Assembly: GCA_964016885.1 (NCBI GenBank)
Contig: OZ024748.1
Coordinates: forward strand, 2,604,001 to 2,668,000
Length of the DNA: 64,000 nucleotides
Direction of reading: 5' to 3'
Source of the DNA: Eledone cirrhosa
Lineage: Eukaryota
Shown: piece by piece, positions 11,620 through 63,655 of the stretch
Numbering within the stretch: position 1 is the first letter of the stretch
Layout of the letters: every line of letters begins with the position of its first letter
Program-made: the position numbers and the translations under genes
The notes under the pieces: model-generated
Told to the model about the DNA's origin: nothing
The model's database searches: none
What the model saw: the letters and a program-made list of their open reading frames with translations, nothing else

Positions 11620-11935
11620 CATAGCTACCCGCTGTATACGCTGGTATGGACATGTCCTCCGCTTTCCACCAGATCCTCCTACCAGGCCGACCTTACTCTC
11701 GTTCTACACATCGGCTGCAAGCTGGAAGTGGACACAAAGCAGGCCCACCACCAAATGGCTGGATGTCATCAGGTAAGAAGATCTCCGGAGTTTCGACATC
11801 ACATTGGCGGATGGCACGGGACCGCCAGCGATAGAGGGCGCTGGTGGGCCTGATCGGCTCTATACACGACGAAGCTTTGGGATCGCTGGCTTGAATGACC
11901 CCCGGCCTCGTCGAGCAAGAAGAAGTAGAATAGAA
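11620..11935 (+). mobile_element. RTE-like LINE 3' end (second family), degraded
   Basis: Translates RCIRWYGHVLRFPPDPP...WK...RPTTKWLDVIR...MARDRQR.RALV, followed by a short gaa-rich tail. Confidence 0.7.
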
Positions 11936-12987
11936 GAGCTCAGCTTAAAAGGGGACTGATTCGTTGATTGAAGATGATAGAAAAGTATGTTGTTAATGCC
12001 TATCCCCCTCACGTTTGAAAAGATGAAAATGAGAAGGATATGTTGATTTGGCTGTTGTTTCTGGCACGTCGAACCACTATAATAATGATTTCTACTATAG
12101 GCACAAGGCCAGCAATTTGAGGGGAAGGGAAAGTCGATTAAATCAACCTCAGTGCTATTACTGGTACTTTATTTTGCCGACCCCGTACGGATGAAAGGCA
12201 AAGTTAACTTCAGACTTTCATAAGGGTAATGAGAATTGTGTACAGTGCTCAGGTGCACTACAACTCATTAAAAGTGCATAGAATAATGTGCAAATGTCAG
12301 GGTTGTTTCCGCCAGTGATTCACTGATTCAAAATGCTAGAAAAGTTTGTTGTTCATGAGTATCTCCCTCACATTTGAAATGATGAAAATGAGAGCAATAT
12401 GGTGGTTTGGCTGTTGTTTCTGGCAGGTCGAACCACTATGTAAAAGTTTCCTAGTTGTTTCCATGAGTCATTCAAGTTTGTGGGTTTGGGAACATGCTTC
12501 TTAAATTGTTATATCTTCACATGTCTTTAAAAATAACTTTCTCTCACATTATTCTTCAAGCAAGAGTGCGGTGGATATCAGAATCGGTAGAGCAATGACT
12601 AATATAGCTTCAGTGTTGTCCTTTTTTTTATATTTCACGTTCTGAGTTCAAATCCTGCAGAGGTCAACTTTATATTCCATCTCTTCTATCTTATTTACCT
12701 GTAACACATTATAAAATCGTAGGGGCGCCTTAGTTGATATACGACGAGTTTTAAACATTTTAAACCTGGAGAGGAAGTGAAAAATATACCCAGAGGAAGA
12801 ATCGATCCCCAGTACTAAACTGGTACTTTTTTTTTTATATATCGACCTCCAAAAAGACCCTCGTCTCTACAGGATCAATAAAATAATCTGGTAGTCAAAT
12901 ATTAGGGTCAATAGAATCGACTTTCTCCTCTCTTCATATTGTTGGACTTGTGACTAAATTAGAAACCATTATTACGGGGTCGATAGG

Positions 12988-22093: not shown

Positions 22094-22133
<40 letters not shown>

Positions 22134-22225
22134 GTTAACATATACATAAAGTTATAGATATATATATGTTGCAACTGGTCACTTTTAAGCTCTATGAAGA
22201 ATTAATAAATTAAAAAATCAGACCA

Positions 22226-22339
22226 ATATATCATAAATCATGTCTTTCGAATCATCAGATAAAATATATACTATTTCTTCTTCTAATTAGAAGAAGAAAT
22301 AGTATATATTTTATCTGATGATTCTAAAGACATGATTTA

Positions 22340-22347
<8 letters not shown>
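22226..22347. repeat. Spacerless palindrome (61-bp arms) with hammerhead-like cores
   Basis: Centre ctaa|ttag at 22286/22287; one mismatch; CTGATGA-TTC-(G/T)AAA on each arm reading outward. Confidence 0.85.
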
Positions 22348-22392
<45 letters not shown>

Positions 22393-22403
22393 ACACTTCT
22401 CAC

Positions 22404-22434
22404 CTGAAGAAGGGCTTATGCCCGAAACGTCGTC
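22404..22434 (+). ncRNA. Minimal hammerhead ribozyme core (PLE-type)
   Basis: CTGAAGA-A-GGGC-ttat-GCCC-GAAAC-gtc-GTC; AATAAA at 22469-22474; the 22390-22520 fragment lies between (TA)n tracts; no clear stem I. Confidence 0.65.
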
Positions 22435-22518
22435 CCCCACCTACCCCCACTCTCCTGAGCGTGAATTTAATAAACATTTATTGTACTGCCTCTCTGTTCT
22501 GTCCCTGTTCAATTTTTC

Positions 22519-25930: not shown

Positions 25931-27590
25931 AATATAAGACACCTGATTATATAGAATGTAAGACACCTGATTATATAGAATGTAAGACACCTGATTATAT
26001 AGAATGTAAGACACCTGATTATATAGAATGTAAGACACCTGATTATATAGAATATAAGACACCTGATTATATAGAATATAAGACACCTGGATTATATAGA
26101 ATATAAGACACCTGGATTATATAGAATATAAGACACCTGATTATATAGAATGTAAGACACCTGATTATATAGAATATAAGACACCTGATTATATAGAATA
26201 TAAGACACCTGGATTATATAGAATATAAGACACCTGATTATATAGAATATAAGACACCTGGATTATATAGAATGTAAGACACCTGGATTATATAGAATAT
26301 AAGACACCTGGATTATATAGAATTATAGACACCTGATTATATAGAATATAAGACACCTGATTATATAGAATATAAGACACCTGATTATATAGAATATAAG
26401 ACACCTGATTATATAGAATGTAAGACACCTGGATTATATAGAATATAAGACACCTGGATTATATAGAATATAAGACACCTGATTATATAGAATATAAGAC
26501 ACCTGGATTATATAGAATATAAGACACCTGATTATATAGAATGTAAGACACCTGGATTATATAGAATATAAGACACCTGGATTATATAGAATTATAGACA
26601 CCTGATTATATAGAATTATAGACACCTGATTATATAGAATATAAGACACCTGATTATATAGAATATAAGACACCTGATTATATAGAATATAAGACACCTG
26701 ATTATATAGAATATAAGACACCTGATTATATAGAATGTAAGACACCTGATTATATAGAATATAAGACACCTGATTATATAGAATATAAGACACCTGGATT
26801 ATATAGAATATAAGACACCTGGATTATATAGAATGTAAGACACCTGATTATATAGAATATAAGACACCTGATTATATAGAATATAAGACACCTGGATTAT
26901 ATAGAATATAAGACACCTGGATTATATAGAATGTAAGACACCTGATTATATAGAATATAAGACACCTGGATTATATAGAATATAAGACACCTGGATTATA
27001 TAGAATGTAAGACACCTGATTATATAGAATATAAGACACCTGATTATATAGAATATAAGACACCTGATTATATAGAATATAAGACACCTGGATTATATAG
27101 AATATAAGACACCTGGATTATATAGAATATAAGACACCTGATTATATAGAATATAAGACACCTGATTATATAGAATGTAAGACACCTGATTATATAGAAT
27201 ATAAGACACCTGATTATATAGAATATAAGACACCTGATTATATAGAATGTAAGACACCTGATTATATAGAATATAAGACACCTGATTATATAGAATATAA
27301 GACACCTGGATTATATAGAATATAAGACACCTGGATTATATAGAATGTAAGACACCTGATTATATAGAATATAAGACACCTGATTATATAGAATATAAGA
27401 CACCTGATTATATAGAATATAAGACACCTGATTATATAGAATGTAAGACACCTGGATTATATAGAATATAAGACACCTGATTATATAGAATATAAGACAC
27501 CTGATTATATAGAATATAAGACACCTGATTATATAGAATATAAGACACCTGATTATATAGAATATAAGACACCTGATTATATAGAATGTA
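25931..27590. repeat. 24/25-bp minisatellite, roughly 68 copies
   Basis: Unit ataagacacctg(g)attatatagaat with an a/g variant; no unique spacers. Confidence 0.95.
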
Positions 27591-28186
27591 AGGCAAATAT
27601 AAATCAATAAATTTAGGTTGACCAATTTGGGAATCGAACCTGCGAAGTTTGTATTATTGGGATAGTTGTATAACCCTACATGTAGCCCCATAATACTTAC
27701 ATATACATACACAGTCACACTCATATATAAAAACATATAGTTACACACACAGTTGCACACACACAGACACACATACAGACACACATACAGACACATACAT
27801 ACTTGCATATACATATACACACAAAAACACAGTTACGTACACACACACACACACACACACATACACTCAACCACACACGTACGCACACACACACACATAC
27901 ATAAAGACATACAGGTATATACACAGACCCTTTCAAAAAATCAAAGATGACTTAGAGAGATATTGGTGAGGGGAAATGGTATAATTGTTGTTGTTTTTAT
28001 GAGACAAAACCCTTTGTTGGTGAATATTTAGAAGGGACCAATTGTCAGAGAATATAGAGAGGGGGAGTTTTGACCATCGCCGCTAGAGGTCACGTCCGTC
28101 TGTAGCTATAAAACTTACTAAACACGTCTAGATTGATTCTGTGTGTGTCTCTCTCGCTCTCGCTCTCTCTGTGCTGTGTGTGTGTG

Positions 28187-33508: not shown

Positions 33509-33757
33509 ATATTAATTCAAAATATTAACAAAGATAGACATTCGTGTTATCAAGTATATTTTATTATACATATTTCAGAGGCACTGAGCCACTGAGCTAT
33601 CTGAAATATGTATAATAAAATATACTTGATCACACGAATGTCTATTTTTGTTAATATTTTGAATTAATATTAAAAACTCCGGAAAACCATTTCTGTGGAG
33701 TGCTTCCAATCTATTGTAAAACTCATTCTTTGATTTATTCATTGAACCTTGTTTAAC

Positions 33758-33761
<4 letters not shown>
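33509..33761. mobile_element. Asymmetric fold-back element, same family as 45992-46403
   Basis: About 70-bp inverted arms (33509-33579 / 33600-33670) plus a unique tail to 33761; flanked by (TA)n; highly similar to the reverse complement of 45992-46160. Confidence 0.85.
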
Positions 33762-44971: not shown

Positions 44972-45460
44972 TTCTTCTGGTTTCAAAATGTTATATTTCC
45001 CAATAGAAATAGAGTCAGTCTCTAACTTAGACACAAGACTCTCTCATTGGAATGTAGACATCAACTAGGTAGATATGTCTGTCTGTCTGTATGTCTGCAT
45101 GTGTAGGTATGGATGTTATTGTATGTGTGGATGTGTATGTTTTGAGTTGTATATGTGCATGTGTATATGCTTTGTATCTGTACATGTGTATATGCAGTTA
45201 TTAGATGCAGAATATTTGGAATGTTTTACATATCTTTACTGTTCCATTAATGGATTGTACTTGTAATTTCCTAACTAGTTGTGTTCTTTCTGTTCCTGTG
45301 AAGCCCAGCTTCTTAAGATTTGTTACTGAGGCAGTTACTAACATATCCCAGTGCCCCAATAATCACAGGTATAAATCTGAAGGTGTAACCAGGGTGGAGT
45401 ATCTGTAGATTTCTCATTAGTTCTACATAGATATTCTCCTTTTCGCTAATCTTTAATATT
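44972..45460 (-). mobile_element. R4/Dong-type RLE LINE 3' end, same family as 19376-19821
   Basis: Reverse complement of the 19.4-kb copy (KENIYVELMRNLQILHPGYTFRFIPVIIGALG); ends gaagaa + cata. Confidence 0.75.
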
Positions 45461-45975: not shown

Positions 45976-46127
45976 TACATATATATATATTTAAAGGTTA
46001 AACAAGGTTCAATGAATAAATCAAAGAATGAGTTTTACAATAGATTGGAAGCACTCAACAGTATTAGTTTTCCGGAGTTATTATTAATTCAAAATATTAA
46101 CAAAATAGATATTCTTGTGATCAAGTA

Positions 46128-46194
46128 TATTTTATTATACATATTTCAGAGGTACTGAGTTAACTTCAACAGTACGTCCTCATCAGATAAAATA
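46128..46194 (-). ncRNA. Type I minimal hammerhead ribozyme (mirror copy)
   Basis: Exact reverse complement of 46294-46360. Confidence 0.7.
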
Positions 46195-46293
46195 AGATGA
46201 TGCATGACATACCCTGACATAGGAGATGGTTAAGATTCGGTCATGGTAGTAATCTTAACCATCTACTATGTCAGGGTATGTCATGCATCATCT

Positions 46294-46360
46294 TATTTTA
46301 TCTGATGAGGACGTACTGTTGAAGTTAACTCAGTACCTCTGAAATATGTATAATAAAATA
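46294..46360 (+). ncRNA. Type I minimal hammerhead ribozyme
   Basis: Stem I TATTTTAT/ATAAAATA; CTGATGA 46302-46308; stem II GGACGTACTG/CAGTACCTCT; GAAA 46341-46344; self-complementary stem III ATATGTAT; predicted AUA cleavage after 46352. Confidence 0.7.
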
Positions 46361-46398
46361 TACTTGATCACAAGAATATCTATTTTGTTAATATTTTG

Positions 46399-46445
<47 letters not shown>

Positions 46446-46447
<2 letters not shown>

Positions 46448-46752
46448 TTTTGAGTTTATGTTGGTTGTATACCAACACCTCAGTATGCAGGCTGGAGCAC
46501 TCGACGAAGTGCGCAGGTTGGTTTGGTTACTCCGGAGTAGTGTAAAATAAAGTTAAATAAAAGTCAAATGATTAAAATTTAGCTTCGTTTATTACTGCTA
46601 TATATATTTCAGTGACAGCCATCTTTGGCTGTGACCTCTTCAGGTAAAAAGGTCACACCTGAAGAGGTCACAGCCAAAGATGGCTGTCACTGAAATATAT
46701 ATAGCAGTAATAAACGAAGCTAAATTTTAATCATTTGACTTTTATTTAACTT

Positions 46753-46759
<7 letters not shown>
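46446..46759. mobile_element. Second fold-back element with outward-facing hammerhead cores
   Basis: Perfect 103-bp arms 46543-46645 / 46657-46759; CTGAAGA-GGTCACAGCCA-aaga-TGGCTGTCACT-GAAATATATATA then AATAAA; tail 46446-46542; (TA)n flanks. Confidence 0.85.
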
Positions 46760-46784
<25 letters not shown>

Positions 46785-61906: not shown

Positions 61907-62574
61907 CATACATATATACATATATATATACATACATATATATATAGTCATATATATATATATATGTATGTATATATATATGTATATATGTATGTATATG
62001 TATATATATATGTATATATGTATATATAAATGTATATATATATATGTGTATATATATATATGTGTATATATCTATATATATGTATGTATATATATATATA
62101 TATGTGTATATATCTATATATATATATATATGTATATATATATGTGTATATATCTCTCTCTATATGTATGTATGTATATATGTGTGTGTGTATATATATA
62201 TATATATGTATGTATACATATGTATATTTGGAAGCCTGGTCTCTGAGTCAAGGGATTAAATGTTGGATCAGAGTGAAGGACGATGTTTGGGAAAGGTCAA
62301 CGGTTTATTCACTGTTAGCAAGTGTGTGTGGCCAATGTCTGCTGCACTGCAAGTGAGGCGTGTTCATTCATTATTAATTAACTGACTCACTTCACTCTTT
62401 ATTTTCCATTTATTCTTGACTAAAGGCGGTGAATCGTCGTATTTGTTCCGGCTTTCTGAACTCTGGGATCAAGTCCCACCCATGTCAACTTTACCTTTTA
62501 TCATTTCGAGGTTGATAACAAAAAGTACCAGTTCAATATTGAGGTCGATTCTTCTTCTATATCTCTTTCTCATT

Positions 62575-63655
62575 TCCTCTCTATCAATCTCCCCTTCTCT
62601 GGAAGAAATGGATTCTTCCTCTCTATCAATCTCTCCTTCTCTGGAAGAAATCGATTCTTCCTCTCTATCAATCTCTCCTTCTCTGGAAGAAATCGATTCT
62701 TCCTCTCTATCAATCTCCCCTTCTCTGGAAGAAATCGATTCTTCCTCTCTATCAATCTCCCCTTCTCTGGAAGAAATCGATTCTTCCTCTCTTTCAATCT
62801 CTCCTACTCTGGAAGAAATGGATTCTTCCTCTCTATCAATCTCCCCTTCTCTGGAAGAAATGGATTCTTCCTCTCTATCAATCTCTCCTTCTCTGGAAGA
62901 AATCGATTCTTCCTCTCTATCAATCTCTCCTTCTCTGGAAGAAATCGATTCTTCCTCTCTATCAATCTCCCCTTCTCTGGAAGAAATCGATTCTTCCTCT
63001 CTATCAATCTCCCCTTCTCTGGAAGAAATCGATTCTTCCTCTCTATCAATCTCTCCTTCTCTGGAAGAAATCGATTCTTCCTCTCTATCAATCTCTCCTT
63101 CTCTGGAAGAAATCGATTCTTCCTCTCTATCAATCTCTCCTTCTCTGGAAGAAATCGATTCTTCCTCTCTATCAATCTCTCCTTCTCTGGAAGAAATCGA
63201 TTCTTCCTCTCTATCAATCTCCCCTTCTCTGGAAGAAATCGATTCTTCCTCTCTTTCAATCTCTCCTACTCTGGAAGAAATGGATTCTTCCTCTCTATCA
63301 ATCTCCCCTTCTCTGGAAGAAATGGATTCTTCCTCTCTATCAATCTCTCCTTCTCTGGAAGAAATCGATTCTTCCTCTCTATCAATCTCCCCTTCTCTGG
63401 AAGAAATCGATTCTTCCTCTCTATCAATCTCCCCTTCTCTGGAAGAAATCGATTCTTCCTCTCTATCAATCTCTCCTTCTCTGGAAGAAATCGATTCTTC
63501 CTCTCTATCAATCTCCCCTTCTCTGGAAGAAATCGATTCTTCCTCTCTATCAATCTCTCCTTCTCTGGAAGAAATCGATTCTTCCTCTCTATCAATCTCT
63601 CCTTCTCTGGAAGAAATCGATTCTTCCTCTCTATCAATTCTTCCTCTCTATCAAT
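62575..63655. repeat. 42-bp minisatellite, about 25 copies
   Basis: Unit tcttcctctctatcaatctc(t/c)ccttctctggaagaaat(c/g)gat. Confidence 0.95.

Follow-up and report, generated by a model that had tools for sequence, protein, structure and literature searches.

The interval 46446–46759 of the window (the whole 64,000-nucleotide stretch of DNA that was analysed) is most probably made up of two 5'-truncated ends of one repeat family, inverted and placed head to head; the family is likely a Penelope-like retrotransposon (PLE) of the Hydra clade. We give this reading a probability of about 0.75. A type I hammerhead, expected to cleave RNA as a dimer, would be present in intact copies of this family, whereas the copy at this locus lacks stem I and would be inactive.

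Layout of the inverted pair and its neighbours

The element in this interval, hereafter B, consists of two short 3' ends placed head to head, with exact arms of 103 nt each at 46543–46645 and 46657–46759 (blastn and arm extension). Its parts, and the two insertions with which it is compared, are:

46446–46542, minus strand: tail of 97 nt, on the left arm only (blastn, arm extension; contigs branch at 46544–46550)
46543–46644, minus strand: left arm, a short 3' end pointing left (exact inverted repeat)
46645–46657, no strand: junction filler of 13 nt at the fold point, specific to B's insertion, its last 8 bases a repeat of 46665–46672
46658–46759, plus strand: right arm, a tail-less copy of that 3' end, pointing right (exact inverted repeat)
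46400–46445, no strand: (TA)n target tract separating elements A and B
46758–46783, no strand: (TA)n tract flanking element B on the right
45990–46403, no strand: neighbour A, with a tail at 45990–46084, arms at 46085–46237 and 46251–46403, and one hammerhead per arm
33510–33761, no strand: element C, a second family A insertion (93% identical) with inverted arms, one-sided tail and repeated filler, in (TA)n

Neighbour A follows the same plan as B, with 153-nt arms and a 95-nt tail. Element C is truncated inside stem II and has a fold point of its own, so that A and C fold at different places, and its filler (33590–33599) contains a 7-nt repeat. Families A and B account for three insertions in the window, and all are 5'-truncated inverted copies joined at the 5' end, each with a one-sided tail of 93–97 nt. 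From C3 of the hammerhead it is 101–102 nt to the short end and 197–198 nt to the tailed end (102/197 in A, 101/198 in B). The fillers of B and C (46645–46657 and 33590–33599) repeat 7–8 nt of their own element and, as we take it, resemble templated insertions of end-joining repair. Summed depth in sequencing runs is lower over the tail of B than over its core, and the whole element is predicted to form a hairpin of −167 kcal/mol.

A, B and C match the published PLE layout in their inverted arms, their fillers, the tail on one side and the (TA)n flanks, and thereby point to a PLE. PLE insertions, as described in the available text of Craig et al. (PMC8557442), sit in (TA)n, have a tail at one of their ends and carry at the 5' end an inverted copy that is itself 5'-truncated, and minimal hammerheads are paired on opposite strands 100–700 bp apart in that of Cervera and de la Pena (PMC4209133). 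For an anole PLE studied in vitro, the tail was the stretch between two internal reverse transcription start sites and hammerhead cleavage was protein-assisted, taking place only in the presence of the element's protein (Frangieh et al. 2024, PMC11167929, in the part available). No reverse transcriptase or endonuclease frame adjoins A or B within the window (translations read by eye), and PLE membership and clade therefore rest on layout and motifs; an ATG inside B's stem II opens 16 codons (by eye), with no long frame after it.

Drawing on PLE biology, we infer that the GIY-YIG endonuclease of the element would nick (TA)n and that reverse transcription would begin at one of two internal RNA sites, yielding either the short or the tailed end, and halt after 100–200 nt. 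A short templated filler would then link the 5' ends of the two products.

The window as a whole is animal sequence, AT-rich and rich in microsatellites, and looks like octopus DNA. It also holds long minisatellites at 25931–27592 and 62460–63650 (24-nt unit, 68 copies; unit of ~39 nt, open in several frames). At 45313–45450 (minus strand) lies a frame ending ...RFIPVIIGALG..., which we take to resemble the C-terminal endonuclease of R2/NeSL-type retrotransposons.

Hammerhead motifs and other copies of family B

The core pattern matches four times in the window, twice per element and once on each strand, compared with 0 expected (100 shuffles), in keeping with the preliminary description, which had seen hammerhead motifs at both loci. 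The cores lie at 46302 (A) and 46659 (B) on the plus strand, with mirror copies at 46186 and 46643 on the minus strand, and show the type I arrangement C3 U4 G5 A6 N7 G8 A9, G12 A13 A14, A15.1-U16.1 and H17:

46599–46643, minus strand: B hammerhead core with stem II and stem III, left arm (C3 at 46643)
46659–46665, plus strand: B core CUGAAGA (C3–A9)
46666–46691, plus strand: B stem II with G·U, G-C, U-A, C·C (46669, 46688), 7 further pairs and an AAGA loop
46692–46703, plus strand: B G12 A13 A14, palindromic 8-nt stem III (46695–46702) and N17 = A (46703)
46704–46708, plus strand: B stem I 3' strand GCAGU, whose partner ACUGC is missing in this copy
46294–46360, plus strand: A complete hammerhead with 8-bp stem I (mirror copy at 46128–46194, minus strand)

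Stem II of A (46309–46318/46331–46340) reads G·U, G-C, A-U, C·C and then six Watson-Crick pairs, and that of B (46666–46676/46681–46691) G·U, G-C, U-A, C·C and then seven, closed by a 4-nt loop; six pairs had been given for both, which is right for A and one short for B. Both stems are the predicted minimum-energy folds in this register, at −7.6 (A) and −11.8 (B) kcal/mol. Against shuffles the stability of B is modest (z −2.0, 10/200) and that of A not significant (z −0.8, 38/200). A register with an inserted base after A9 gives no stem in either element. Stem III of B, AUAUAUAU, is a perfect 8-nt palindrome (homoduplex −3.2 kcal/mol), whereas that of A, AUAUGUAU, described earlier as equally palindromic, is self-complementary only through G·U wobbles (homoduplex −2.2 kcal/mol) and would cost 3.5 kcal/mol in monomer form. 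The AUA site was correctly read, with A at position 17 (46703), and hammerhead numbering places the predicted cut 3' of 46703. No hammerhead model reached its Rfam gathering score in the window, and the 35 matches obtained when E was relaxed to 10 included none.

We compared 46447–46670 with 4 of 23 listed sequencing runs, all 23 without an RNA label. Family B is large, with 2027 matching contigs in run X1, followed by three in X12, one in X7 and no reads in X16; X7 and X12 are of low depth and have too few contigs for variation, which is read from X1 alone, a run that may not be independent of the source of the window. In all three runs with contigs, depth falls to ~0 over 46647–46670, and the fold point is thus not common to other copies. 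Behind 46644, loose ends read ACUGC before the core in 61 contigs of X1 and one each of X7 and X12. This is the exact partner of the GCAGU after the cut site and completes the five Watson-Crick pairs of stem I in other B copies, whose upstream sequence, visible over 30 letters, differs from B's junction. At this locus one of the five pairs is left at either arm. Since other copies carry stem I, this copy lost it by truncation, as had been suspected from the fold point.

At 46611, the U facing G10.1 at this locus reads C in 274,218 of 668,743 units of summed depth in X1 (41%, 94 contigs; summed depth does not equal copy number). This allele fixes the register of stem II, as proposed in the preliminary description, and makes the G·U an allele of the canonical G10.1-C11.1 pair. 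The G·U that closes stem II in this copy, which the same description expected to be conserved, is therefore not fixed in family B, and for this pair the outcome is the one that the description had named as refuting. We also observed that alleles at 46491, 46492, 46540 and 46611 each make up 36–42% of X1 depth, which suggests two subfamilies of B. Six X1 contigs suggest U replacing C3.

In intact copies, stems I and II would each form inside a single copy, while the weak palindromic stem IIIs of two copies in a tandem transcript would pair with each other, perhaps assisted by the element's protein, and cleavage would fall 3' of A17. Weak or palindromic stem III with dimer folding is long established in the available parts of PMC3088659, PMC6765202 and PMC7229834, and AUA is found in natural hammerheads, where it was the slowest of four triplets tested (PMC1636495, as available). 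The B copy at this locus is a truncated remnant and would be inactive as a ribozyme: it has no stem I, its two motifs lie on opposite strands and so allow no dimerisation in cis, and a read-through transcript would form a 103-bp hairpin burying the motif.

Relatedness of A and B and the C·C mismatch

Neighbour A had been called unrelated to B, a claim that the following comparisons argue against. The two elements are collinear, with no large gaps from core to tail, and their alignment including the ribozyme scores 52, compared with 24.7 ± 4.2 for shuffles (0/2000 reached it). Without the ribozyme, plain local alignment of the 3' parts gives 27 versus 22 ± 3.6 (210/2000), which is not significant. 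Composition-aware scores for the same parts were reached by 154, 10, 12 and 6 of 1000 shuffles under four settings, the 10 and 6 belonging to global scores (p about 0.01); these tests were picked after shared motifs had been noticed:

46496–46538, minus strand: motifs ACUCCGGA (46531–46538) and GAGUGCU (46496–46502), common to family A, just past the tail start

The 8-mer ACTCCGGA sits 58 and 61 nt, and GAGTGCT 80 and 97 nt, past the cut site in A and B, and the short end lies 4–7 nt before ACTCCGGA in all three insertions. Of four ACTCCGGA sites in the window, three are within A, B and C; the fourth (11784) is in other sequence, namely 11640–11950 (minus strand), which looks to us like a LINE 3' end. 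A and B are thus probably distant families of one lineage, and the geometry they have in common would come by descent from one ancestral element rather than by independent convergence.

Just past the short end, ACUC...GAGU could pair over a variable spacer in all three tails (46496–46538, 46049–46078 and 33676–33706), and this pairing is a candidate RNA signal for the reverse transcription start site. A further fold-back unit at 22119–22345 has a one-sided tail ending like that of family A and the same bases before CUGAUGA, with no recognisable stem II; it is perhaps a decayed third relative.

Between A and B, six of the nine stem II pairs are changed on both sides, and both unpaired Cs at position 4 are kept. 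Element C keeps the 3' C, and two places further a U-A pair has become U·G. In either family the stem could be restored by changing a single base, and no such change is seen at 2% in family B: in X1 the mismatch Cs (46633, 46614) have no variant at that level, the 5' C lying 11 nt from the end of homology and hence less well tested. Only 6 of ~198 covered places vary at ≥2%, however, so invariance within family B says little.

Published lists offer no counterpart. By eye, C·C at this position occurs in none of the 81 motifs (56 + 25) in the available parts of PMC4209133 and PMC8557442, which we attribute in part to design, since the descriptors require unbroken stems. The 56 rows of Fig. S3 of PMC4209133 (by eye) show G·U closing stem II in 8 and a position-4 1x1 mismatch in 2 (U·U and C·A, once each). 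Pattern scans gave no hits in a viral collection, 12 in a metagenome collection and 5 in a genome collection; these 17 were rejected as chance, none having both stems and none more than four leading pairs. Among the papers listed in literature searches, none describes a C·C loop in a PLE hammerhead in its title or the opening of its abstract. One further motif was found in the window, as the sole additional match of a loose scan with one core change allowed:

22404–22432, plus strand, within 22390–22518: third hammerhead, of the common minimal PLE type, with an inserted A, 4-bp stem II, ACGU stem III, C17 and 2-bp stem I, between (TA)n tracts

Its plain stem II shows that the C·C geometry is not general in this genome. 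The geometry may already sit in the alignments of Lünse et al. 2017, which are said to be large hammerhead alignments, or in Repbase or Dfam.

We rate the odds that the C·C is kept by selection as about even, because only two families are compared and the feature was chosen after the fact. A reading only just short of an even bet accepts the PLE ends as above and takes the C·C for a neutral ancestral leftover without function. The narrow comparison, the scarcity of variable places in family B, the single published mismatches of other kinds and the unbroken stem of the third hammerhead all favour neutrality, while the double-sided replacement of most of the stem around two retained Cs, the missing one-base repair and the 3' C of element C speak against it. 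Position 10.1-11.1 is an ordinary G-Y pair. On the selected alternative, the C·C after three pairs would most likely dock stem I or a protein on an otherwise long stem II. It might contact the protein, or it might do what loop II does in short-stem hammerheads, for which loop II–stem I contacts are described (PMC3088659, available part). More tentatively, and at odds clearly below even, there may be a TA-targeting PLE lineage whose long stem II is interrupted, three pairs in, by a C·C loop under selection; in place of loop II, this loop would receive stem I or the element's own protein. Descriptors built on unbroken stems and short loops would have missed the lineage, and a second conserved RNA element, the ACUC...GAGU helix at the tail start, would mark where reverse transcription begins.

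Probable place among Penelope-like elements

Our best guess for the clade of A and B is the Hydra PLEs, which share with them the (TA)n target, a motif ~100–200 nt from the 3' end, no inserted base and a self-complementary stem III (PMC8557442, available parts). In the 25 distinct Hydra-clade motifs of File S2 of that source (by eye), 24 have no inserted base after A9 (7 with G-C, 2 with G·U, 14 with U·U and 1 with U·C at 10.1-11.1), 11 have A at position 17 and 23 lie 87–210 nt from the 3' end; B has G·U and G-C alleles and A at 17. Among the Hydra families listed there, 26 of 27 target (TA)n, an octopus member is included, and Penelope-13_HM has an inverted 5'-truncated copy like those of A and B. 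Some traits differ: the tails of A, B and C measure 93–97 nt versus a published 30–40 nt for PLEs, stem III has 8 nt versus 9–10, and stem II has 10–11 positions with the position-4 C·C, compared with no internal mismatch in the 25. The sequence of A and B is not that of Hydra-1_Obim as available. A shared motif lies in the tail of B:

46476–46498, minus strand: GCUCCAG-N5-AUACUGAGGUG in the B tail, shared with the published Hydra-1_Crog consensus at its 3' end

As DNA, GCTCCAG-N5-ATACTGAGGTG accounts for 18 of 23 nt common to the B tail and the Hydra-1_Crog 3' end, one of six new Hydra consensus ends in the available material. Its 11-mer occurs once in the 584,131 characters of the PMC8557442 supplement text available, in Hydra-1_Crog, with the 7-mer at equal spacing; by a rough hand estimate the chance of this match is below 1 in 10,000, but the other five of the six ends have no such motif. 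The matching word of A has no match in that supplement text, and searches of it with stem and flank words gave no copy of A or B, line breaks being able to hide words.

Ends of a PLE from another clade (Neptune, Nematis, Poseidon or Naiad) are rather unlikely. Insertion into (TA)n together with a canonical hammerhead is found in the Hydra clade and is not exclusive to it: (TA)n is also the preferred target of Neptune and Naiad, and the listed Naiads include cephalopod ones (PMC8557442, in part). The clades are moreover defined at the protein level (in the Hydra clade by RWK, DKT and CxCX5C without CCHH and by RT phylogeny, in Naiads by an N-terminal endonuclease). Against this stand the full hammerhead motifs of A and of other B copies, contrary to Naiads, which are reported without canonical hammerheads in the available text of PMC8557442, the lack in A and B of the base that the general PLE consensus inserts after A9, and the four short stem II and stem III words of A and B, which gave no hammerhead-context match among the matches listed from its supplement. 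We also noticed in that supplement, as available, a Naiad consensus that contains CUGACGA, GAAA and a stem II of 5 bp, which closes a long insert; within the insert lie complementary strands for stem I and stem III. It may represent a hammerhead that is not circularly permuted, in a clade reported to have none.

Other known systems resemble A and B in part. Minimal PLE hammerheads are likewise of type I and lie between AU-rich flanks; their stem II is long, their stem I short and their stem III palindromic (15.2-16.2 and loop 3), as in A and B. They differ in an unpaired base between A9 and G10.1, part of the general PLE consensus and missing in A and B, and mostly have a stem III insert of 0–2 nt and C or U at 17 (A in 6/56) (PMC4209133, available parts). 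The Poseidon element of Anolis also has two 3' ends that differ by a tail, an AT-rich target and a hammerhead upstream of the ends, but its tail is 30–40 nt and its ORF starts in stem II (PMC11167929, available part).

Independent arrival of unrelated elements at one structural subclass, defined jointly by G·U, C·C and an 8-nt stem III, is decidedly improbable. The differing stem II sequences, the non-significant plain alignment of the 3' parts and the lack of C·C in the published motifs available would fit it. The end positions, spacing and tail-start motifs common to A and B do not, nor do the pattern scans. Of the conserved subclass first proposed, the C·C survives the checks made, in two families; the G·U is exchanged for G-C in 41% of family B depth, and the palindromic stem III is already a hallmark of PLE hammerheads in the literature (PMC4209133, in part).

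Very improbable, too, is that the palindrome itself moves as a unit, be it as a non-LTR retrozyme monomer or as a fold-back of MITE type. In favour are its shortness, its perfect inversion and its lack of coding sequence, and non-LTR retrozymes share a type I hammerhead, a weak palindromic stem III and a non-coding repeat (PMC7229834 and 10.64898/2026.07.22.740005, as available), the latter reporting them as derived from PLE repeats. Retrozymes form head-to-tail arrays of 150–450 bp, however (PMC7229834, available part), whereas A and B are single head-to-head pairs with a tail, their motifs on opposite strands and no head-to-tail repeats with a hammerhead in each; A and C fold elsewhere, and other B copies lack the fold point and continue upstream with other sequence. 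A chance match or microRNA-like hairpin is practically negligible, as the best relaxed-threshold Rfam matches, although microRNA models, score far below gathering and cover only the long inverted repeat, for which they were rejected, and chance is refuted by the four core matches and by other copies that supply the complement of stem I and a G-C allele, unless the X1 contigs are artefacts.

PLE hammerheads have been known since 2014; they cut poorly alone, one being protein-assisted. What may be new here is the C·C at position 4 in two families, perhaps a minor variation, not described before, on a familiar design; G·U at 10.1-11.1, a palindromic stem III and the AUA site have been published for PLE hammerheads. 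Should the mismatch be neutral, the finding amounts to another two defunct retrotransposon remnants. Most of the stem was exchanged between two diverged families and a single mismatch stayed, which offers a cheap and precise test of what these ribozymes need, for which the natural G·U and G-C alleles of family B allow a comparison, and the motifs shared at the tail start point to an RNA signal for internal initiation of reverse transcription.
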